IMG/VR virus record: IMGVR_UViG_3300045988_062919
Length of the DNA stretch: 44,175 nt
Origin: a virus
Reading direction: 5' to 3' (one strand)
Shown piece after piece: positions 7,399-40,286 of this stretch. Both the position numbers and the translations under genes were made by a program. Position 1 is the first letter of the stretch; every line of letters begins with the position of its first letter. The notes under the pieces are model-generated. The model searched no databases. It was not told where the DNA came from and saw only the letters and a list, made by a program, of their open reading frames with translations.

Positions 7399-7449
7399 CT
7401 AATCATAAAAGGACAATAGATTGTCTTAATTAGATTGGGAGGTAATTTT

Positions 7450-7917
7450 ATGGTTCAAGAATATTGCCGGGGAGACATTTTCTTCATCACAGAAGGTACA
7501 CACACTGGCTCGGAGCAGAGCGGCGGCAGACCCGGTGTTATCGTCTCGAACGATCTCGGCAACAAGCACTCGCCCAATGTAGAAGTTGTATTCCTCACCT
7601 CACGAGAAAAGAAGCCCATGCCGACCCATGTGGAGGTGCTGTGCAAAGTTCCGTCTACTGCTCTCTGTGAGAACATTCAGACGGTCTCAAAAGAGCGGCT
7701 GGGCACTTTCATCCGCTCCTGCACTACGAGCGAAATGAAGAATATCGACCATGCGCTCCTATGTTCGCTCGGTCTTCACGCTCCTGCGGCTGTCGGGGGG
7801 GGGACTCAGGTTTCCACTTCTCCTTCGACAGAGGTTTCAAAGGCCGAAATCGAGCGGGATTTGTTCAAGAGTCTGTATGAACAGCTTTCAGACAAAGTGA
7901 TGGTGAGTAAACCTTGA
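7450..7917 (+). CDS. MazF/PemK (EndoA-like) endoribonuclease toxin domain with a ~45-aa C-terminal extension. No adjacent antitoxin ORF.
   Basis: RGDIFF...GSEQSGGRPGVIVSNDLGNKHSPNVEVVFLTS...PTHVEV...ENIQTVSKERL closely follows the MazF/EndoA pattern. GGGAGG RBS. Confidence 0.75.
   Translation: MVQEYCRGDIFFITEGTHTGSEQSGGRPGVIVSNDLGNKHSPNVEVVFLTSREKKPMPTHVEVLCKVPSTALCENIQTVSKERLGTFIRSCTTSEMKNIDHALLCSLGLHAPAAVGGGTQVSTSPSTEVSKAEIERDLFKSLYEQLSDKVMVSKP
7795..7803 (+). repeat. G9 homopolymer inside the C-terminal extension of the mazF-like gene
   Basis: Counted directly (encodes GGG in AAVGGGTQ). Confidence 0.9.
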
Positions 7918-8379
7918 ACACTGATGTAATGTTTAGTAGCAAAACCGATGATTGGGCAACACCACAAGATTTCTTTGATAAATTGGATTTTGAATTTCAG
8001 TTCACCCTCGACCCATGCGCCGATCTTCATAACCACAAGTGCGCTCGGTATTACAACCGGGAGCAGGACGGTCTAATTCATGATTGGGGGGGAACGAGTA
8101 TTCTGCAATCCCCCATACGGAAAAGAAATCGCAAAATGGGTTCAAAAATCTTTTGAGGAAAGTCGTAAGAAAAACACGCTCGTGGTTATGCTCATTCCAG
8201 CAAGAACTGACACAAAGTATTTTCACGACTTCATATACGGGAAGGCCGAGATAAGATTCATTCGTGGGCGGTTAAAGTTTGGAAATGCGAAAACCGCCGC
8301 TCCTTTCCCCTCCATGGTCGTGATATTCAGAAATGAGGAGGATTCCAATGACAGTAACACTCATACAGGCAACGCCTGA
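7914..8379 (+). pseudogene. Phage Dam-family DNA N6-adenine methyltransferase, split by a frameshift at a G7 tract (8086..8092)
   Basis: ORF 7914..8156 carries DDWATPQDFFDKLDFEFQFTLDPCA...LIHDWGG. ORF 8080..8379, in the +1 frame, carries RVFCNPPYG...MLIPARTDTKYFH. Removing one G gives a continuous HDWGERVFCNPPYG. Confidence 0.8.
8086..8092 (+). repeat. G7 homopolymer at the dam frame break
   Basis: Counted directly. Confidence 0.9.
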
Positions 8380-11598: not shown

Positions 11599-11678
11599 GA
11601 TTGAAAAATAATCAAAAACGACATTTGGAAAGTAGTCTGGAATGGATTGTAATTTGTCTTTTTGAGAGGTTATAGATG

Positions 11679-11784
11679 AAGTAGTTAAAGTAGTTCAAAT
11701 CTTGAATTTGCGTAAAAGTCCTCTATAAGGGGGTCTATATAGTAAAAGTTTACGCAAAAACCGATTTTTAACTACTTCAACTAC
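11679..11784. repeat. Nested-palindrome element, copy A (outer inverted repeat AAGTAGTTAAAGTAGTT / AACTACTTCAACTAC; inner inverted repeat TTTGCGTAAA / TTTACGCAAA)
   Basis: Read directly. Homologous to the copies at 16038..16146 and 38552..38687. Confidence 0.85.
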
Positions 11785-11854
11785 GCAATAAGAACAAGAA
11801 GAAAGAGGACTCTTTTGGCTCGAAAAGAGGACTCTCAGAGGAGGTAAAACGACT

Positions 11855-15459: not shown

Positions 15460-15474
15460 TAGGAGGTGAACCAC

Positions 15475-16047
15475 ATGAAAGTGGGTTATGTGCGGGTGAG
15501 CACCGTTGAGCAAAACCTTGCTCGGCAGTTGGAGCTGATGAAGACCCTCGGTGTGGAGAAAATCTACTGTGACAAAATGAGTGGGAAAAACACAGAGCGT
15601 ACCGAGTTTAAGGAAATGATGGAGTTTCTGCGAGAGGGTGACACCCTGTATGTGGAGTCCTTCTCCCGGCTTTCCAGAAGCACCCTCGATTTCTTAAACA
15701 CTGTGAGCAGGTTACAGGCCAAGAGTGTGAATCTTGTGTCCGACAAGGAAAAGATGGATATGTCCACTCCGCAAGGTAAGTTTATGGTGACGGTGTTTGC
15801 CGCACTCTCCGAGCTGGAACGAACCAGTATGCTCGAGAGACAGCGGGAGGGTATCGAGATTGCCAAGGCCGAGGGGAAATACAAAGGGCGAAAACCCATT
15901 CCCGCCAACGAAAAGTTCTTTGCGGTGGCAAACGCTTGGGCGGGAGGTAAGATTGCTCTCAAAGACGCAATCCGGGAGTCTGGTATGTCCTCCTCCACTT
16001 TCTTTCGCAAATGCAAGCAGTTTGAAATCAGCAAAAGAAGTAGTTAA
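15475..16047 (+). CDS. Small serine recombinase (resolvase/invertase, Hin/Gin-like) with a C-terminal HTH
   Basis: MKVGYVRVSTVEQN (catalytic Ser motif), LYVESFSRLSRS, ALSELERTSMLERQREG, about 190 aa. AGGAGG lies 8 nt upstream of the start. Confidence 0.85.
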   Translation: MKVGYVRVSTVEQNLARQLELMKTLGVEKIYCDKMSGKNTERTEFKEMMEFLREGDTLYVESFSRLSRSTLDFLNTVSRLQAKSVNLVSDKEKMDMSTPQGKFMVTVFAALSELERTSMLERQREGIEIAKAEGKYKGRKPIPANEKFFAVANAWAGGKIALKDAIRESGMSSSTFFRKCKQFEISKRSS

Positions 16048-16146
16048 AGTAGTGGAAAATCAGGTTTTGCGTGTAACTTCCTCTTAGCATACGCATATAT
16101 AGCAAAAGTTTACGGAAAAATCGAAAATCAACTACTTTAACTACTT
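16038..16146. repeat. Nested-palindrome element, copy B. It overlaps the last codons and the stop codon of the serine recombinase gene.
   Basis: AAGTAGTTAAAGTAGT ... AACTACTTTAACTACTT, with inner arms TTTTGCGTGTAACTT / AAGTTTACGGAAAA. Confidence 0.85.
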
Positions 16147-16163
16147 GATGGGAGGGAAACGCC

Positions 16164-27600: not shown

Positions 27601-28863
27601 TTGAACGAAAAGCTCCCCGGCTTGTCCAGCAATATGAGCGATTTCGTTGACTTCATGACGGAGTTTGCAGGACAGGTGGTGCGGTACACAGAGGTGTCCG
27701 CTATCGCTGGCCTGAGCGCAACGATTGACACCATCATCGGCTGGTTTACGCAAGACCCCGTTGAGAAGCTGGCAAATGATGTGGAGAACATTTCCGAACA
27801 GACCTCCAACCTCAACGACAAACTGGCAATCGCTGTTCCTGAGTTGCAGACTGCCGCAGACCTGTTGCAGGAATATAAAGACCTCCTGACGCAGATTGAA
27901 AACCTGTGTGATAGCAATGTGGAGCTATCCACTGGTATGTTTGTCAACATGAAGGAGGTCGGACAGAGCCTTGTAACCGGCTTTGTGGACGGTATTCAGT
28001 CGAAATCCGGGGACTTCAAAAATGCGGCGAGGGATTTAGTAGAGGGCTTCAAGACACAGCTCACCAGCAGTGCCGAGACCTGCCGCTCCACCATGACCGC
28101 ATGGGCTTCTAATGTAAAGAACTGGTTCACGCAGAGCAGTTACGGCGCAATCAACCGTACCACCTTCCAGAACTACGCAAAAGATGTGGTGTCTGGCTTC
28201 GCTTCTGGTATCACCAGCTCCTACAACAGCTCGAAGTCCAGCATGACTTCTTGGGCTTCCAATGTGAAATCGTGGTTCAGCGACATTGCTTCCCGCAGTG
28301 CGTTCTACGAAATCGCAAGGGATGTTGTGAACGGCTTTAACTCTGGTATCAACGACCTGTACTACACTTCCCGCCGCTATATGCGTGAGTGGGCAAATGA
28401 CGCAATCGCCGCATTTAAGTCTGAATTGGATTCCAATTCTCCCTCCAAGGTGTTTGAACGCATTGGCGGGGACACCGTTCTTGGCTACAACAACGGGATT
28501 ACCACTCTTGGAAAGACCACCAAGGGCGTTGTGGACAGTTGGGCAAACTCCTTCACCAGCGTAAGCCCTGTCATGCGGTTTGCGGTAGACACCTCCGCTC
28601 TCAAATATTACACCAGTGATTCGTTCGCCAAGTCGGTATCTGCCGATGTAACAAGCAACCGCAATCTCTCTGTCACCGGCTTTGAGGAGTGCATGAAGGA
28701 GTTCTACAAGGAGTATGTCGAACCCACGCTGTCCCAGATGGCAGACGATATGCGCCGACAGGCTGATAAAAACGAGCAGACCATTGTTCAGATCGGCAAT
28801 CGCACTGTCACTGACGCTGTAACCACTCAGCGCAAAGCCAACGGTTATGTGTTCGTGAAGTAA
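24682..28863 (+). CDS. Tail tape measure protein
   Basis: About 1393 aa, with a coiled-coil N-terminus and long Gly/Ala-rich hydrophobic segments, located after G/GT. Confidence 0.85.
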   Translation: MSTTIEQLELEIQSNSTSAVGGIDALSESLRRLKAATAPVSKGGVGLGALSNSLKKFSQSVSGLTGLTLAREQVQGLVDALKPLESVQKSGFNSLASGLDKLVKIAPQIDTVTESLKKTDLDSFADQCNRVATAITPLATQMEKVAAGFSAFPAKIQRLLKGNTNLAASNTVLGKSYVNLAAKISAAYIGLKSITSVIAGWITASNSYIENLNLFNVSMGQYAEEARNYAEQVGEVMGINPGEWMRNQGVFMTITEGFGVASDRAYTMSKNLTQLTYDLASFFNISTSDAFQKLESGISGELEPLRRLGYDLSVARLQQEAYNLGIEKSVTAMTQAEKAELRYYAIMTQVTNAQGDMARTLEAPANQLRILQAQVEQATRALGNLFLPILKAILPYAIALAKAIRMVAEIIAGFFGVSIPEFDMGTDAIGGVASGAGEAADGLGDASKKAKELKNALLGIDELNVISPPEDSSGGAGGAGGIGGGGGLGFELPTYDFIADAVNEQVDKIMAKIQPFLDWVRENIDEILAGVLAIGAAFLAWRIAKGVQDFLRWLSTMKGFNITGSIAFKIAGLGLFLDAWNTMKEAIQDIMANGPNFTNVTKLISGFAEALGAAFLLFGNIKMAGAMLVISGLTGIVSAISDMVNNGVNWDNALFLVKNLGLFLSGLGMLTGNTKLAGIGLIISGATLIVDNLKGFLEAIRTGDWSNVNMVEVAAGALMLVGGFILTLKKLDALKDSANAGQAAKQALETVTDTTSKIDTTVSTGLSPKLTSLAKNLGLGLVVIAEVTAAALLIVGAIALLGMELEQVGIAWEPVIANGETVAIAIGLGAAILGAVGLAAYALGTGGATVALNIGIGTAILLELGVAAGLFIVEIWAIGKGLDEIGQAWQPVLDNGEAIATAIGIGTGLLVGIGVVTAALGVATVASAGLLPLAIGLGTALLVELAAAFILFVESLVAVADELNYRLDPPLMALNEKLPGLSSNMSDFVDFMTEFAGQVVRYTEVSAIAGLSATIDTIIGWFTQDPVEKLANDVENISEQTSNLNDKLAIAVPELQTAADLLQEYKDLLTQIENLCDSNVELSTGMFVNMKEVGQSLVTGFVDGIQSKSGDFKNAARDLVEGFKTQLTSSAETCRSTMTAWASNVKNWFTQSSYGAINRTTFQNYAKDVVSGFASGITSSYNSSKSSMTSWASNVKSWFSDIASRSAFYEIARDVVNGFNSGINDLYYTSRRYMREWANDAIAAFKSELDSNSPSKVFERIGGDTVLGYNNGITTLGKTTKGVVDSWANSFTSVSPVMRFAVDTSALKYYTSDSFAKSVSADVTSNRNLSVTGFEECMKEFYKEYVEPTLSQMADDMRRQADKNEQTIVQIGNRTVTDAVTTQRKANGYVFVK

Positions 28864-32616: not shown

Positions 32617-34551
32617 ATGAGCTGGGCAGAAGCAAAATGGGTGGTAGATAATATCCTGCAAAAGACAGGACAGGCACCCAACAACATGAGAGCGTTTACC
32701 GCTTTCGCAAAATCCAGCACCACCATTGGGCTGAGATTTCTGGAACCCGAAGACAGCTATGACAGCGCAGATAATCTGCTCTGTTCGGTCGGCGGCGTAA
32801 TGATTCGCATGGGCGAAGATGGCTACCCCGCCAGCACCACCGAAGGTACGCTGGTTATTGACAACAAAGAGCTTGGGAAATATGTGACCGAGGAGTACAC
32901 CGTGAGCAGTCTGACCGAGGGGAAGACCTACTACTTCTCCGCTTTCCCGTATTCCTCTCAGGGCGTGTATAACCTGTCGAGCAATGAGAAAAATCGGGCG
33001 AGTGCCGCTCCTGCCGATGGGGAAACGGCGAATGTCACCATCAACATTGACAATGACAGCGCATTTAACAGCGTCACTATCACCTGCGTGGACGAGACGG
33101 ACGGGCAGTACACCAAGACCGCCACGCTCACCAAGACGCAGAAAAAGGCTTCTTTCACCGTCCCCATCGGACACACCTATCACATCGAGTACGGTGCGGA
33201 GGACGGGTATTCCAAGCCTGAGAACACCGAAGCCAAGGTGTCTGTGGCGGGTGCTGTATCGAACTATGAAGCAACCTACTACTATTTCACCGCCACCATT
33301 GATGTCACCTACCCGGCAGGAGCGACCTGTACCTGCTCCCTCGATGGCACGACCTATACCGCAACCGGCACCAGCGGCAGGTATCAGTTCAAGGTACACA
33401 AGGTCGGCACATGGACTGTGAAAGCGACCAGCGGCGGCGAGTCCGCTTTCGAGCAGGTTGTAATCACCTCGGACGGGCAGAGCGAAACGGTGGAGCTGTC
33501 TTTTGTGAAAATCTTCGGTATCAGCCGGGATATTAAAGCGTCCTCCCCTGTGTGGGCGAGAACCGACATGGCAGTGGGCATGACCGCCACCGCTTCTATC
33601 GGCACAAACGCTGGTCACAGCGATTTCGATGATGTCATGCCTTGGAAGGGCATGGTGCGGGAAACCCTCCCTGCCAACGATGTGATGGTGAAAATCCCGA
33701 AATTTTACTACCGCCGCTATCGTGAGGGGACGGTTGAGCATATTCAGATCGCAGACAAGCCTACGGCTGGTTTCTCGGTACACCCCCTGTTCAATCATGC
33801 AGGTCGGGAGTGCGACCACGCCTATGTGGGTGCGTACAAAACTTCCAGCAACAATAAATCCGTCTCCGGGGCAAGTCCGCAAGCGTCACAGACAAGAGCC
33901 ACTTTCCGCAGTAACGCCAAGGCGAAGGGCGCAGGATGGAGCCTGATTGACATTGCGGCGGTATCTGCCATTCAAATGCTCATGCTGGTGGAGTTTGCAA
34001 ACAACAATGTGCAGAGCGTTATCGGCAGAGGATATTGTGACGGAGACAGCGGCCCGCTGAGAACCGGGTCTTGCAACAGCGTTCCCAACCTCACCGGCAG
34101 ACCTTCTGGCACAGACGGTAAGACCGGCGTTGTCTACAGAGGTATCGAGGACTTCTGGGGCAATGTGTGGGAATGGGTCGATGGCGTGAACTGGAACGAC
34201 GGCACTTACTATATCTGCAACGACCCTTCCAAGTACGCTGACGATACTGCAACCGGCTACACCCAGCTTTCCTTCAAAGGAGCGACAAACTGGGGTAGCT
34301 CCTATATCACTGAGGAGGGTCTGGACACCGGGGCAAATCCCCATGTCATGCTTCCTTCTGCGGCTGGTAGCGGCAGTGAGTCCACCTATATGTGTGACGC
34401 TTGTTGGAGTAGCACAGGATGGCGAGTGTTCCCACGCGGCGGTGATTGGGCTTATGGGTCGTCTTGCGGTCTCTTTGCGGCTACTTTGTACACCGCTTCG
34501 TCTAATTCCTACACGAACGTTGGCTCTCGCCTGCTTTATATCCCCTCCTGA
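32617..34551 (+). CDS. Receptor-binding tail fibre protein with a C-terminal FGE-sulfatase/C-type-lectin-fold domain (the DGR target)
   Basis: GIEDFWGNVWEWVDG motif. The C-terminal ~40 codons are the DGR variable repeat. Confidence 0.8.
   Translation: MSWAEAKWVVDNILQKTGQAPNNMRAFTAFAKSSTTIGLRFLEPEDSYDSADNLLCSVGGVMIRMGEDGYPASTTEGTLVIDNKELGKYVTEEYTVSSLTEGKTYYFSAFPYSSQGVYNLSSNEKNRASAAPADGETANVTINIDNDSAFNSVTITCVDETDGQYTKTATLTKTQKKASFTVPIGHTYHIEYGAEDGYSKPENTEAKVSVAGAVSNYEATYYYFTATIDVTYPAGATCTCSLDGTTYTATGTSGRYQFKVHKVGTWTVKATSGGESAFEQVVITSDGQSETVELSFVKIFGISRDIKASSPVWARTDMAVGMTATASIGTNAGHSDFDDVMPWKGMVRETLPANDVMVKIPKFYYRRYREGTVEHIQIADKPTAGFSVHPLFNHAGRECDHAYVGAYKTSSNNKSVSGASPQASQTRATFRSNAKAKGAGWSLIDIAAVSAIQMLMLVEFANNNVQSVIGRGYCDGDSGPLRTGSCNSVPNLTGRPSGTDGKTGVVYRGIEDFWGNVWEWVDGVNWNDGTYYICNDPSKYADDTATGYTQLSFKGATNWGSSYITEEGLDTGANPHVMLPSAAGSGSESTYMCDACWSSTGWRVFPRGGDWAYGSSCGLFAATLYTASSNSYTNVGSRLLYIPS
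34418..34537 (+). repeat. DGR variable repeat (VR)
   Basis: Gap-free 120-nt alignment to the TR. All 19 differences fall at TR adenines. Confidence 0.9.
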
Positions 34552-34555
34552 GGGT

Positions 34556-34576
34556 GTGGGGGATTCCCTCCCCCAC
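34556..34576 (+). other. GC-rich hairpin downstream of the VR (DGR target-recognition hairpin/cruciform candidate)
   Basis: GTGGGGGA-TTCCC-TCCCCCAC: 8-bp stem, 5-nt loop, 19 nt after the VR end. Confidence 0.6.
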
Positions 34577-34629
34577 ATAAGTGGGTGAACACACCATATT
34601 GAAAATCGAAACACGCTAAGGCGAACAGT

Positions 34630-34749
34630 AAAAGCGAGTGTTCCAACACGGCGGTAATTGGAATAATGGGTCGAATTGCGGTCTCTTTACGGCTAATTTG
34701 AACAACACTTCGTCTAATTCCAACACGAACATTGGCTCTCGCCTACTTT
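34630..34749 (+). repeat. DGR template repeat (TR)
   Basis: Non-coding copy of the VR. Adenine-rich, with AAT/AAC at the positions that vary in the VR. Confidence 0.9.
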
Positions 34750-34864
34750 TGTTAAACGGTAAAAATCATCAAATACTGTTTCGCCGTACCCATTGGTAAA
34801 AAATAGTTTGGAGGGACAGGGTTAGTAGGTTCACTCTCGAAAGCCCTGTAAGAAACAAAAGCAG

Positions 34865-35953
34865 ATGAAAAGGTTTGGATTCCTCTATGAACGGATAGTT
34901 TCAGTGGAAAATTGCAGACTGGCTATCCTCAACGCTTCTCAAAAGAAGAAAAAGCGAAAAATGGTGAAAGAAGTCCTTGATAATTTGGAGTATTACGCCA
35001 ACGACCTTTCCGAGCGAATGAGCCGCATGGATTTTCTCTCCCCATATAAGACCCGTATTATCAAGGACGGGTTATCTGGAAAAGAACGGGAACTGCAAGT
35101 CCCGGCGTTCTACCCCGACCAGTGCGCACACCACGCCATTATGCAGATTCTCAAGCCGATTATTGAGAAATCGTCCTACCGATGGAGTTGCGCCAATATC
35201 CCCAACCGGGGCATTGACCTTGCTTGCAAGGGTGTGGAGAGAGCCACTGTGCGGGACAGGAAACACGCAAAATATTGCGTGAAAATGGACATTAGCAAGT
35301 TCTACCCATCTATTCCTCATGGCAAGCTGAAAGCCCGACTGCGGGAGAAAATCAAAGACGAAAAGGCTTTGCAAATCATCTTCAAGGTGATTGACTCCCA
35401 CAATCCGGGGCTTCCCATCGAGAACTATACTTCCCCTTGGCTGGCAGAACTATACCTGCAACCGCTGGATTACCTTATCAAGCAAAAGCACCGAATACGG
35501 CACTATATCCGCTACGCTGACGATCTGGTGCTGATAGACAGCAACAAACGAAAGCTGAGGAAAGCTCTTCACGATATTTTCCTGTTTGTGGAGGAGCTGG
35601 GTATGACGGTGAAACACGACTACCAGTTGTTTCGTATTCAGCCATACTGCAAGGAAAGGACAGGCCGCAGGGGACGAAAGATAGATTTCGTAGGGAGGTG
35701 TTTCGGAATTGGTTTTACCACCATCCGAAAGAGAAGGGCGTTGGCACTTATGCGGCAGAGCAGGTTTATTCAAAAGCTACAGCGGCAGAACCGGCCTGTC
35801 TCATACAGAATGGCTTCCGGGTTTCTCTCCCGGTGCGCCTGTTTCAAGCACACCAACTCATACGCCATGAAGAAAAAGTACTACGAAACGGTCAACATCA
35901 AAAAGTTAAAGGAGGTTGTCAGCAATGAGAGTAAGAGGAAATGTCTCGCCTAA
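34865..35953 (+). CDS. DGR reverse transcriptase
   Basis: RT motifs including IRYADDLVL (YADD box) and GLPIENYTSPWLAELYL (resembles the DGR-type GxxxSQ motif region). Adjacent to the TR. Confidence 0.85.
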   Translation: MKRFGFLYERIVSVENCRLAILNASQKKKKRKMVKEVLDNLEYYANDLSERMSRMDFLSPYKTRIIKDGLSGKERELQVPAFYPDQCAHHAIMQILKPIIEKSSYRWSCANIPNRGIDLACKGVERATVRDRKHAKYCVKMDISKFYPSIPHGKLKARLREKIKDEKALQIIFKVIDSHNPGLPIENYTSPWLAELYLQPLDYLIKQKHRIRHYIRYADDLVLIDSNKRKLRKALHDIFLFVEELGMTVKHDYQLFRIQPYCKERTGRRGRKIDFVGRCFGIGFTTIRKRRALALMRQSRFIQKLQRQNRPVSYRMASGFLSRCACFKHTNSYAMKKKYYETVNIKKLKEVVSNESKRKCLA

Positions 35954-36242
35954 CTCGCTTAGTATTGAGCCGTTCGCACCCATGCCGGGATATGTGGAAG
36001 TTCGTCTGCGGGAGAACATCAAAGAGGTCACGGAAGTCGATGAAATGACGGAGCAGGAAATCCCGATGTTCGAGTATGACGAATATACCTTCCATCTGGC
36101 GAACAAAGAGGGTCTGCGGGAGGAAATCGAAGGAAATCTGAGCGACTGGCTTGTCACTGGCAGGACGCTTGAAATCAACGAGGGCGCAAGCATTGTACAG
36201 GACATGAAAGAAGCTCTGGAAATTGTGGGGGTGAATGTATGA
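35916..36242 (+). CDS. Hypothetical acidic protein (XkdW-like position)
   Basis: AAGGAGG RBS. It overlaps the RT 3' end by 38 nt. Confidence 0.5.
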   Translation: MSAMRVRGNVSPNSLSIEPFAPMPGYVEVRLRENIKEVTEVDEMTEQEIPMFEYDEYTFHLANKEGLREEIEGNLSDWLVTGRTLEINEGASIVQDMKEALEIVGVNV

Positions 36243-36664
36243 GCATGATCGAACAGGCACAGGCAATCCGGGAAGCTATGGACTACGCAGGAGCAAGCCT
36301 TGACGAGGACACCGCTCTGATTTGCGTTGCGCTCTACCGCCCATGGGAAGTTGGCGTTGCGTATAAGCAGAACGACCGCTTCACCTACGGCGTAAACAGT
36401 GTGGGAGACCCCCAGCTTTACAAGGTGGCACAGGCACACACCTCTCAGGCTGACTGGCTACCCGATAAGACCTCGGCGTTGTACACCCCAATCGGGCTTG
36501 ACGAGAGTGGCTACCCCATCTGGTCGAAGCCCACGGGGGCGCATGACGCTTACAACAAAGGGGACATCGTGAACTACAACGGCAAGCTGTACCAGTCTAC
36601 GATTGACGGAAACACTTGGTCTCCCGATGAATACCCGACAGGTTGGGTCGAATACACCGAGTAA
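36239..36664 (+). CDS. Small protein with carbohydrate-binding (CBM5/12-like) repeats
   Basis: Aromatic-rich repeats YKVAQAHTSQADWLP and NGKLYQSTIDGNTWSPDEYPTGW. Confidence 0.5.
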   Translation: MSMIEQAQAIREAMDYAGASLDEDTALICVALYRPWEVGVAYKQNDRFTYGVNSVGDPQLYKVAQAHTSQADWLPDKTSALYTPIGLDESGYPIWSKPTGAHDAYNKGDIVNYNGKLYQSTIDGNTWSPDEYPTGWVEYTE

Positions 36665-38557: not shown

Positions 38558-38687
38558 TTAAAGTAGTTAAAGTAGTTAAAGTAGTTAAAGTAGTTAAAAA
38601 TCGGTTTTTGCGTAAACTTTCTCTATATACACGCGTACTATGCAAAAGTTACACGCAAAAACCAAAGAACAACTACTTTAACTACTT
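38552..38687. repeat. Nested-palindrome element, copy C, with a 5x tandem GTAGTTAAA array (38554..38598) in its left arm
   Basis: Read directly. The right arm AACTACTTTAACTACTT is at 38671..38687. Confidence 0.9.
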
Positions 38688-38723
38688 GTATAAGAACAAG
38701 AAGAATAACTTACAAACAAAACA

Positions 38724-38754
38724 AGAGGAGGTAGGCGTTTAACCTACCTCCTCT
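38724..38754 (-). terminator. Rho-independent terminator of the integrase gene (12-bp perfect stem)
   Basis: AGAGGAGGTAGG-CGTTTAA-CCTACCTCCTCT. On the minus strand it is followed by UGUUUUGUUUGU. Confidence 0.7.
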
Positions 38755-40286
38755 ATATTCATAACAAACCCGAAACAGTGTTTTACAAAAAACAAGGTGT
38801 TCGGATTTGCACCTTTTGGTGGAGCCATACACGCTATATCCGAACACGAAAGCGTGGCTGTGTTTTGCCCGGAGATATTGAAAGTGAAGACGATTCTCCG
38901 TCCCTTTTCTCCATCATCGTAAACATACACCGAGTTCACCAGAGTATCTACCACTCTGCGCCGATACTCAATATCATCTATATCACCACTCTTGAACGAA
39001 TTGAGCCAGTGCATTATGCGCTCTTTCGTCAGGAGTGGTTTTTTCATTTCCTCACGAGCAATCTTCCCCTCCAAGTCGTTCTTCTCAGCTTCCAGCTCGT
39101 CCATTCGTTCCTTGGTGGTGGGTGTGATTATCCCCTGTTCGATAGCGTTCATGAGGTTTTTTATTTTCTTCTTAATGTCTTTCAGCTCATTTTGAAGTCC
39201 ATTGAGATAGGAGGTATCAGCCGACTCCTTTTCAATAATCTCCATGGTCTTTCTGGCAATGCGTTCTATGGTTTCATCATTCAATACATTCTGAACGGTG
39301 AACCGCACCACCAGTTCCTCTATCCAATCCTTTTTCTCCACCGCCTTTTTGCATTTGTGATTCCGCTTACGGTCAATGCACTTGTAGTAGTGGTGGAGCT
39401 TGCCCGATCTGGAAGTGCCGCTTTCTCCGACCATGGAAGAGCCGCAATGACCGCAGAACAATTTTGTAGTGAGAAGGTAATCGTCTTTAGCCTTATTCCT
39501 CGCACGAGCCGAATAGTTGTGCCTTAGAGTGGCCTGTACTTTCTCGAACAGCTCCCGGCTTATGATAGGCGGCACACCGTCCTCCACTACAACATCTGCG
39601 AAGCGATAGACCCCGATGTACCTGTCGTTTTTCAACATTGTGCGCAGACTGTTTTTGTTAAAGGCGTTCCCTCGTGAGGTTTTATACCCTCGTCTGTTAC
39701 ACTCGTTGATAATCTGAGTTGCCGACATACCATCGGCATACATCTGAAAGATTTCCTGCACAATTTTCGCCCCAACAGGGTCGATTTTATACTTCCTGTC
39801 TTCCCCTACAGTGTAGCCCAAGGGCATACCTGCCCCTCCTACGGCAAGGCACTGTAGGGCATTTTCTTTTAATCCTCGCTTGATGTTCCGAGACAGGTTC
39901 TCCGAATAGTATTCTGCGTACCCTTCCAGCACTGATTCCAGAATAATCCCTTCCGGGGTATCAGGCATGGGCTGTTTGGCGTAATAGACTTTCACGCCAT
40001 TCTTTTTCAGCTTTGCTTTGTAGATGGCTGAATCGTATCGGTTTCGGGCAAAGCGGTCAAGGGTGTACATTATCACCGCTTCAAATTGCCCCTTTTCGCT
40101 GTCTTTTATGAGCCTTTGAAAGTTTGGACGATTATCGGTTTTACCTGAGATTGCTCTGTCGCAATATTCACCGATGATCGTCATTCCATTTTTCAGTGCA
40201 AAGTCGTGACACTCACGAAGCTGTCCTTCTATGGATTCCTCTCTCTGGTTATGGCTCGAATATCTGGCATAGATTACCGCTTTCGT
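38739..40286 (-). CDS. int: Large serine recombinase (integrase). There is no canonical start codon upstream of the catalytic-serine region; the putative start is ACG at 40284..40286.
   Basis: KAVIYARYSSHNQREESIEGQ (catalytic Ser motif) is encoded at 40185..40283, in frame with the 481-aa ORF. Also a recombinase domain, a zinc-ribbon-like CGHCG...YYKC segment and a coiled coil. GGAGG lies 7 nt upstream of the ACG. Confidence 0.75.
   Translation of the reverse strand, partial: TKAVIYARYSSHNQREESIEGQLRECHDFALKNGMTIIGEYCDRAISGKTDNRPNFQRLIKDSEKGQFEAVIMYTLDRFARNRYDSAIYKAKLKKNGVKVYYAKQPMPDTPEGIILESVLEGYAEYYSENLSRNIKRGLKENALQCLAVGGAGMPLGYTVGEDRKYKIDPVGAKIVQEIFQMYADGMSATQIINECNRRGYKTSRGNAFNKNSLRTMLKNDRYIGVYRFADVVVEDGVPPIISRELFEKVQATLRHNYSARARNKAKDDYLLTTKLFCGHCGSSMVGESGTSRSGKLHHYYKCIDRKRNHKCKKAVEKKDWIEELVVRFTVQNVLNDETIERIARKTMEIIEKESADTSYLNGLQNELKDIKKKIKNLMNAIEQGIITPTTKERMDELEAEKNDLEGKIAREEMKKPLLTKERIMHWLNSFKSGDIDDIEYRRRVVDTLVNSVYVYDDGEKGRRIVFTFNISGQNTATLSCSDIACMAPPKGANPNTLFFVKHCFGFVMNIEEVG

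Follow-up and report, generated by a model that had tools for sequence, protein, structure and literature searches.

A probable accessory-gene-less diversity-generating retroelement, with an RT-18 RNA in its spacer, at the tail-fibre gene of a temperate phage of gut Clostridia

Does the virus record IMGVR_UViG_3300045988_062919 of IMG/VR (44,175 nt, the whole stretch of DNA analysed and here called the window) carry a diversity-generating retroelement (DGR) at the end of its tail-fibre gene, and on what kind of machinery would such an element depend? A sequence-only reading had described a complete DGR at this locus, with a variable repeat (VR) at the 3' end of the fibre gene, a non-coding template repeat (TR) a short distance downstream and an adjoining gene for a reverse transcriptase (RT). 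We conclude, with a probability of about 0.9, that the cassette is an accessory-gene-less DGR (target with VR, TR and RT) of a temperate phage of gut Clostridia. As such it is typical of a very common class. Tens of thousands of phage DGRs with tail-protein targets have been catalogued (PMC8144416), and the window shares with the gut phage DGR clades of Roux et al. (2021) the gut Firmicutes phage, the tail-protein target, the C-type-lectin VR domain and activity at the level of the population (PMC8144416). The positions of all features of the cassette are collected in Table 1.

The two repeats were compared base by base. The ungapped alignment of 34418..34537 with 34630..34749 (offset 212) contains 19 mismatches, and every one of them falls on a TR adenine. 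This recount agrees with the sequence-only reading, which had placed all 19 on the 33 adenines of the TR. The 120-nt TR is composed of 33 A, 34 T, 28 C and 25 G, and the adenine-only placement of the mismatches has a hypergeometric probability of 1.4e-13. A repeat finder, used independently, returned the slightly shorter pair 34422-34537 and 34634-34749 (116 nt, 86% identical). The four bases by which the two versions differ read GATG in the VR (34418-34421) and AAAA in the TR, where the VR frame gives TAA AAG. VR positions 34418, 34420 and 34421 are identical in all eight loci that we compared (see below) and 34419 deviates only in L003, the most divergent of them (about 84% identical overall), while the corresponding side of the TR (34630-34633) abuts the 5' strand of an RNA duplex. 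Judged from these bases, the first four positions of the 120-nt repeat are probably not homologous to the TR. We therefore worked with a 116-nt core, which has 16 mismatches, all among 29 TR adenines (P = 3.9e-12). The proposed 120-bp bounds were thus trimmed on the 5' side, and on the other side the identity does break off sharply at 34537/34749, as had been stated.

Read in the VR frame, the TR holds ten AAT or AAC codons, the type of codon that had been noted at the variable positions, and 29 of its 33 adenines stand in codon position 1 or 2. The adenine-specific differences in AAY codons, and the position of the VR at the 3' end of a tail-fibre gene with a C-type-lectin domain, are features of the Bordetella phage BPP-1 element (mtd-VR, avd, TR, brt) as well. 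The TR is present in a single copy, with no other on either strand of the window, and a second VR was not found within the window. A 53-aa open reading frame (ORF) at 34638..34799 is merely the TR translated in the VR frame. With the boundaries of the sequence-only reading the theoretical diversity amounts to 2.3e17 protein sequences; without the two edge codons it is about 3e15 for the core.

Variation among related phage genomes gave the second line of evidence. An exact 40-mer taken from the TR retrieved seven contigs from IMG/VR (L001-L007), which make eight loci together with the window. These contigs are 84-99% identical to the window across more than 10 kb, and each has its own VR and TR, 15-24 mismatches apart. 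Pooled over the eight loci, 158 of 160 VR/TR mismatches lie at TR adenines. In two of the contigs (L002 and L006) the divergence from the window is 0.4% outside the VR and 13-15% inside it. Across the eight genomes the VR has 23 columns with at least three alleles, against no more than one in any other 120-bp bin of the 3.5-kb alignment, and 33 columns vary in the VR versus 4 in the TR. The window TR is identical to that of L006 and nearly identical to those of the other loci. Furthermore, each VR follows its own template, since its sites proved mutable only where the cognate TR has an adenine. Loci with C or G at TR index 55 carry the matching base in their own VR, the VR is fixed in those loci that have T at index 46 or G at index 86, and at those positions the VRs vary among loci with an adenine in the TR. 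Polymorphism restricted to TR-adenine positions was the test that the sequence-only reading had regarded as decisive. It was borne out on the seven related contigs, which served as a proxy in that related assemblies took the place of reads. By this proxy, the phage population has undergone actual diversification of the VR.

The TR of one further relative in IMG/VR is unusual. In L120:49-297 the repeat on the RT side has G, C or T at many of the sites that are A in all other TRs (for example CAGGCGCGG and GGGCTCGAGCC). It looks like a TR overwritten by VR-like sequence, and the contig ends before the VR.

At its 3' end the VR closes with 18 nt that are the same in all eight loci. Position 34533 of the VR is G in each of the eight, and position 34745 of the TR is A in the window; this is the sole VR-TR difference within the segment, and the difference is fixed in seven of the eight loci. 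From the sequences, it looks like the difference between an initiation of mutagenic homing (IMH) element and its TR-side counterpart IMH* rather than like a diversified site. We regard the segment as a candidate IMH, a role assigned after BPP-1. Retrohoming in BPP-1 also requires a GC stem of 7-10 bp located 4-34 bp from the VR (PMC3240598), and a GC-rich hairpin past the VR is common to both elements. The 8-bp hairpin reported earlier at 34556..34576 is real and constitutes the inner 8 bp of a longer stem of 10 bp (arms 34554-34563 and 34569-34578, loop 34564-34568), the DNA fold of which has a predicted energy of -15.4 kcal/mol (z = -2.75). Nearly all loci of the RT family have a GC-rich stem of 7-11 bp at 16-23 nt past the end of homology. 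The stems show compensatory variants (GTGCGGGGGA/TCCCCCGCAT, TTAAGGGGGAG/TTCCCCCTTAA and GTAAGGGGAAG/CTTCCCCTTAC, with changes such as T-A to C-G), and some are wholly different in sequence. A private T-to-C change at 34566 gives the window the loop TTCCC; the closest relatives have TTTCC, and TTTC occurs in several others.

The RT begins 115 nt past the TR and contains the YADD box that had been reported. It matched Pfam RVT_1 (E = 5.6e-14) and phrog_1423 (E = 2.8e-82). Compared with all PDB sequences, its best match was the Bordetella enzyme bRT (8ub7, E = 1e-17), followed by group II RTs (8.8e-12 and weaker) and the retron RT Ec86 (1e-4). The proposal of a DGR-type RT thus held, with bRT, the product of brt, as the closest solved homologue. 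BLASTP against Brt gave 26% identity over 284 aa, from residue 2 on (E = 8e-22). The NCBIfam RT models were not used for classification: they include no DGR model, and all matches were far below cut-off. A profile scan of 185,579 species genomes yielded 359 RT relatives, the best being those of an Acutalibacter metagenome-assembled genome (MAG; 91%), Lacrimispora defluvii (81%) and an Oscillospiraceae MAG (80%). Among the 80 relatives that were kept, a crude seed-and-extend finder applied to the bacterial genomes detected the order VR-TR-RT, with 80-100% A-biased mismatches, at 38; relatives with as little as 35% RT identity carry A-biased VR/TR pairs. RT relatives in GenBank phages, all below 60% identity, occur in Lactobacillus phage LBR48 and in Butyrivibrio, crAss-like, Bacteroides, Faecalibacterium and Bordetella phages. 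Of these, LBR48, Arawn (a Butyrivibrio phage) and the crAss-like, Bordetella and Bacteroides phages represent lineages that bear DGRs. Arawn carries an A-only repeat of its own (6/6 mismatches at A in the best 80-nt window). On the strength of these sequence comparisons, the RT adjoining the TR appears to belong to the DGR clade.

These data also bear on an ordinary duplication, in which the fibre-gene end was duplicated downstream and the two copies diverged in the normal way beside an unrelated retron, group II or defence RT. Such an origin would suit the NCBIfam results, where the best sub-threshold match was to a group II intron RT/maturase model (89 bits, cut-off 300), and the labels 'retron-type' or 'maturase family' that some RT homologues bear in their source databases. 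We consider it extremely improbable, however. Normal divergence would have to place 19 of 19 mismatches on adenines (P about 1e-13), to repeat this bias in 7 close and 38 more distant loci, and to leave the TR almost invariant next to a multi-allelic VR. The best structural homologue of the RT is bRT, and neither an intron RNA domain nor a retron msr/msd accompanies it; the flanking RNA matches RT-18 and the layout of a DGR cPRT Stop (see below).

Whether the RT copy in the window still works is a separate matter from whether the cassette is a DGR. The equivalents of window residues R75, I185, E186 and P191 in bRT are R74, I181, G182 and Q187, respectively. R74 and I181 of bRT promote adenine mutagenesis (PMC7826257), and in the bRT structure G182 together with I181 contacts the templating base. 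The window RT carries two private changes, G186E (codon 35420-35422, GGG to GAG at 35421) and Q363stop (35951-35953, CAA to TAA), the latter with loss of the last three residues. Gly186 is present in all readable motifs among 120 listed homologues and in 6/6 close loci read, and neither change occurs in the readable homologues among those 120 or in the six close loci. Because of G186E and the early stop, the present activity of the window RT copy is uncertain. It is possible, although we think it the less probable state of affairs, that the DGR was recently disabled, so that past diversification ended with a crippled RT and the VR is a frozen allele. Both changes are private to this RT, one of them affects the equivalent of a residue that contacts the template base, and 3 of the 19 private substitutions outside a presumed recombinant patch (described at the end) lie in the RT, two of them altering the protein. 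Against this stand an RT ORF that is otherwise intact, and a TR, RNA structures, hairpin and target that are all intact. Three private changes in 1.1 kb are also close to the expected number (about 2), with no significant enrichment in the RT, and a single assembly or sequencing error is possible. The natural G186E allele would in any case offer a ready test of the template-contacting glycine.

The target is the 644-aa fibre ORF that had been proposed, with the VR as codons 602-641 of 644. Upstream of the gene are those for the tape-measure protein and the distal tail, and downstream come those for a CBM5/12 protein, a holin and an amidase endolysin. PHROGs gave a match of residues 355-644 to phrog_5302 'tail protein' (E = 3.4e-70). 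The GNVWEW motif, from which an FGE-sulfatase/C-type-lectin fold had been suggested, is present, but Pfam gave no FGE-sulfatase or DUF1566 match on the fibre, and the fold was therefore shown by modelling instead. AlphaFold2 was run on residues 330-644 with 53 homologues; the model had a mean predicted local distance difference test (pLDDT) score of 70.7 and a disordered stretch at residues 142-174 of the modelled fragment. Foldseek against the PDB returned as best match the DGR variable protein TaqVP of Thermus aquaticus (5VF4; E = 1.1e-8, probability 1.00, TMq 0.55), then the FGE-fold protein PvdO (0.045) and Mtd (0.13). A weak sequence match to 5VF4 spans the GNVWEWV segment, which TaqVP shares along with a C-terminal variable stretch. 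In contrast to the fibre, TaqVP is a cellular protein, and the two are only 18% identical; the pLDDT of the fibre model is moderate. The modelling that the sequence-only reading had suggested for this region thus returned a C-type-lectin fold, and the fibre C-terminus models as the TaqVP type of that fold. In the last 45 residues of an alignment of 54 homologues, the columns that depart from the consensus fall where the TR has adenine-containing codons.

We then asked how far the cassette resembles DGRs of known composition. Searches with the bAvd and 23S-IVP families (PF22296 and PF05635) gave no match among 115 window ORFs of 75-190 aa, nor among 75 ORFs that lie no more than 4 kb from the RT in nine relatives; BPP-1 Avd, included as a positive control, scored 7.3e-36. 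The gap between VR and TR measures 96 nt (34538-34633), with 78 nt from the target stop codon to 34630, so the repeats are too close for a gene between them, whereas BPP-1 has the whole avd gene in this place. Avd is probably absent from the cassette, a judgement made from family searches for a poorly conserved protein of which a divergent form could escape. The word 'complete' in the sequence-only reading is accordingly right for the Avd-less architecture, of which target-VR, TR and RT are all present, and not for one that includes a detectable Avd. Avd-less elements make up 26% of catalogued DGRs (PMC5758913). In architecture A, which has no accessory gene and accounts for 29% of 372 DGRs, an Avd-independent mechanism has been inferred (Wu et al. 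2018, PMC5758913). The window agrees with architecture A in having target-VR, TR and RT on one strand without avd, HRDC or MSL; it departs from the published survey in its RNA elements, none of which were described for that class (PMC5758913).

Table 1. Features of the DGR cassette in the window, by position
Feature	Position	Strand	Details
DGR target, tail fibre / receptor-binding protein, 644 aa	32617..34551	+	ORF; phrog_5302
Variable domain, modelled C-type-lectin fold	33679..34548 (about aa 355-644)	+	phrog_5302 match, AlphaFold2 model
VR	34422..34537	+	target codons 602-641; 16 mismatches to TR, all at TR A
Candidate IMH, invariant VR 3' end TTGGCTCTCGCCTGCTTT	34520..34537	+	no variation in 8 loci
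GC-rich hairpin/cruciform GTGTGGGGGA ttccc TCCCCCACAT	34554..34578	+	16 nt past the end of VR/TR homology
Long-range duplex, 5' strand GGCGAACAGTA	34620..34630	+	pairs with 34774-34785; ends at first base of the 120-nt TR
TR, non-coding	34634..34749	+	29 adenines
Long-range duplex, 3' strand TACTGT[T]TCGCC, one unpaired T	34774..34785	+	pairs with 34620-34630
Structured spacer RNA, Rfam RT-18 (RF03021)	34787..34864	+	49.3 bits, gathering score 41.3, E 7e-8
RT-18 parts	stem-loop 34787-34798; A-run 34799-34804; helices 34806-09/34853-56, 34816-22/34843-49, 34828-29/34837-38	+	
DGR reverse transcriptase, 362 aa	34865..35953	+	YADD = Y217-D220; RVT_1; phrog_1423
orfX, 105 aa, acidic (pI 4.3)	35925..36242	+	overlaps RT 3' end by 29 nt

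The spacer between TR and RT is occupied by a structured RNA. It scored above the gathering threshold of the Rfam family RT-18, and its helices covary. RT-17 was also above threshold at this place (42.2 versus 40.4 bits), below the score of RT-18. The motifs RT-1 to RT-19 have been described just as lying near RT genes, and RT-10 alone was tied to a DGR, that of BPP-1 (PMC5737381); that other RT motifs serve DGRs was a matter of speculation (Weinberg et al. 2017, PMC5737381). RT-18 itself appeared there as an orphan motif (PMC5737381), whereas here it occupies the TR-RT spacer of a DGR. The window differs from BPP-1 in having RT-18 rather than RT-10 in this position. At distant loci, with RTs 35-40% identical and A-biased repeats, RT-18 stands directly upstream of the RT start in 12 of 17.

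The TR itself forms the loop of a long-range helix, since 34774-34785 pairs with 34620-34630. This 11-bp duplex was found in 38/38 family loci and in at least ten fully compensatory sequence variants (among them GGCGATATAACTTAG/TTAAGTTATATCGCC and GGCGGCACTATATT/AGTATAGTGCCGCC). Because MAFFT misaligned the 5' strand in divergent loci, the duplex was scored by our own script, except for its GGCG/CGCC end. The mean helix score was 10.5 for strands of the same locus, 5.4 for cross-locus pairs and 4.1 for shuffles. At the GGCG/CGCC end, L015 shows GC-to-AU covariation. When that end was taken together with the RT-18 helices in 29 family sequences, 96.5% of the cells could pair, against 42-55% in slid controls; 13 of 21 pairs had changed on both sides, and 0/500 shuffles reached the observed values. 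The RNA structure claims rest on this covariation, thermodynamic folding being uninformative.

On the 3' side of the TR the elements follow in the order duplex (11 bp, with one unpaired U in the spacer strand), stem-loop and A6 run, in 38/38 loci. This is the layout of the BPP-1 'cPRT Stop', in which the TR is likewise flanked by an 11-bp duplex with one unpaired U in the spacer strand (avd:Sp), a stem-loop and adenosines that engage in A-minor contacts. In BPP-1 the duplex, the stem-loop and the A-minor adenosines are needed for cis-primed reverse transcription (bioRxiv 10.1101/2023.10.23.563531), and the cPRT Stop blocks the polymerase at the TR 5' end, as described in a survey limited to DGRs with Avd (bioRxiv 10.1101/2023.10.23.563531). 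By analogy, the structure in the window may have the same stop and priming functions.

From these comparisons we propose the following mechanism. A transcript running from about 34612 into the RT gene would form a ribonucleoprotein with the RT; a search of 34300-36300 found no sigma-70-like promoter. In this RNA the TR would be a loop of about 145 nt closed by the 11-bp duplex, and a 4-bp stem-loop, the A-run and the remainder of the RT-18 fold would follow. If the parallel with BPP-1 extends so far, the duplex assembly would position the TR 3' end for cis-primed synthesis of cDNA and would halt that synthesis at the TR 5' end. Such a stop would be the reason why the homology starts at 34634, just past the duplex. 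The RT would copy the TR faithfully save at adenines, and the cDNA would replace the VR between 34422 and 34537, guided by the invariant 3' segment and the GC hairpin downstream. In this way some 17 codons, mostly AAY, would be randomised on the ligand-binding face of the C-type-lectin domain, giving core protein variants on the order of 1e15. As in other systems of this kind, the outcome may be a switch of receptor.

Several observations weigh against this explanation. Avd is essential in BPP-1, yet none is detectable here, and since BPP-1 is the only DGR to have been studied biochemically, its mechanism is not simply transferable. The minimum free energy of the whole TR-RNA is no better than that of shuffles (z = -0.48). 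A comparison by eye of the TR 3' end with 34750-34773 gave no convincing template:primer duplex, and a conserved priming adenosine 2-3 nt before the duplex was not seen, 34771-34773 being adenines in the window and GTC in close relatives. The hairpin loop fits the GRNA consensus on the antisense strand only, and not on the sense strand as in phage DGRs, including BPP-1. The variation data stem from related contigs rather than from reads of the window genome. Finally, the DGR signature [I/V/L]GxxxSQ (as opposed to QGxxxSP) is IGNYTSP in the RT family and IENYTSP in the window copy. Motif B of the family thus keeps the DGR-type Ile and has a final Pro as in group II RTs, where BPP-1 has glutamine. 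Since bRT Q187P keeps adenine mutagenesis (PMC7826257), this Pro may be a variant rather than a contradiction.

Overlapping the end of the RT gene is orfX, which had no Pfam, PHROG or NCBIfam match and no match in GenBank phages. An orfX profile built from 14 homologues located the gene directly after the RT in 15/16 close and 34/105 distant RT loci. In the distant loci with orfX, recognisable conservation is confined to the target C-domain, the RT and orfX and does not extend to the neighbouring tail and lysis genes. Scanning IMG/VR with a degenerate motif produced 11 homologues, and all nine with enough sequence have an RT alongside on the same strand. The AlphaFold2 model (pLDDT 78.6) consists of a beta-sheet followed by helices; it resembles only uncharacterised viral proteins and found no fold match in the PDB. 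With this topology and no PDB match, OrfX is not an Avd-like helical bundle. By its conserved position, orfX is a candidate cassette-linked gene. It may be a DGR accessory factor, loosely comparable to the acidic CH1 of Wu et al., and may equally be a partner of the fibre tip. The comparison with CH1 (160-169 aa, in Bacteroides) was made by description only (PMC5758913), orfX being a 105-aa gene of Firmicutes phages.

The chances appear evenly divided on whether orfX stands outside the retroelement altogether, as a chaperone or adaptor of the C-type-lectin domain that by chance came to lie behind an inserted TR-RT module. Wherever orfX occurs, the target C-domain is present along with the RT, and the orfX product is acidic and not Avd-like. 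Furthermore, orfX is missing from Arawn, whose A-biased DGR belongs to the same RT clade, and 71 of the 105 distant RT loci have no detectable orfX. A fortuitous neighbour would fit less well with an overlap of the RT stop codon that suggests translational coupling, with a place directly after the RT that persists at RT identities as low as 35-40%, where every other neighbour differs, or with the lack of any RT-free homologue among the nine assessable loci. The bolder proposal, that a Firmicutes-phage DGR lineage without Avd uses a larger RT-18/cPRT-Stop-like spacer RNA and the RT-coupled, previously undescribed orfX protein in its place, we hold to be doubtful. If it is true, orfX would be a new DGR accessory factor, and the orphan RT-18 motif would have a function.

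As one more DGR the locus adds little, gut phage DGRs that diversify C-type-lectin tail tips being documented on a very large scale. Its value is mechanistic, in that only the Avd-dependent BPP-1 element has been dissected and about a quarter of DGRs are Avd-less. The family to which it belongs offers a compact Avd-less cassette (about 1.9 kb from VR to orfX), whose RNA keeps the cPRT-Stop layout with strong covariation. It also offers a functional context for Rfam RT-18 and a candidate partner protein. Minimal cassettes of this kind are attractive for engineered targeted mutagenesis.

The rest of the window is that of a temperate phage, with an SPP1-type portal, a tape-measure protein, a large serine recombinase, ERF/YqaJ recombination proteins and a D5-type primase. 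The phage is temperate, siphovirus-like and belongs to gut Clostridia (relatives of Oscillospiraceae/Acutalibacter). Near-identical DNA was not present in 50,697 GenBank phage records. When the window was compared with four close loci, 33 of its 52 private substitutions outside the VR fell within 115 nt (28099-28212) near the 3' end of the tape-measure gene, a stretch that looks like a small recombinant (mosaic) patch. An imperfect palindrome of about 110 nt, ending in AGTAGTTAAAGTAGTT ... AACTACTTTAACTACTT, occurs in three intergenic copies (11676-11803, 16037-16149 and 38579-38688), which are 70-80% alike in either orientation. Two of these copies adjoin a small resolvase gene (15466-16047) and the large serine recombinase gene (38739-40184, minus strand), and the palindromes could be recombination or regulatory sites. 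The small-ORF set gave two matches to Pfam Dam (PF05869), apparently from the overlapping ORFs 7914-8156 and 8080-8379, which are in different frames; if this putative attribution is right, the pair suggests a frameshifted or split methyltransferase gene. The same scan gave a PemK/MazF-like toxin match, probably from the preceding ORF 7435-7917.

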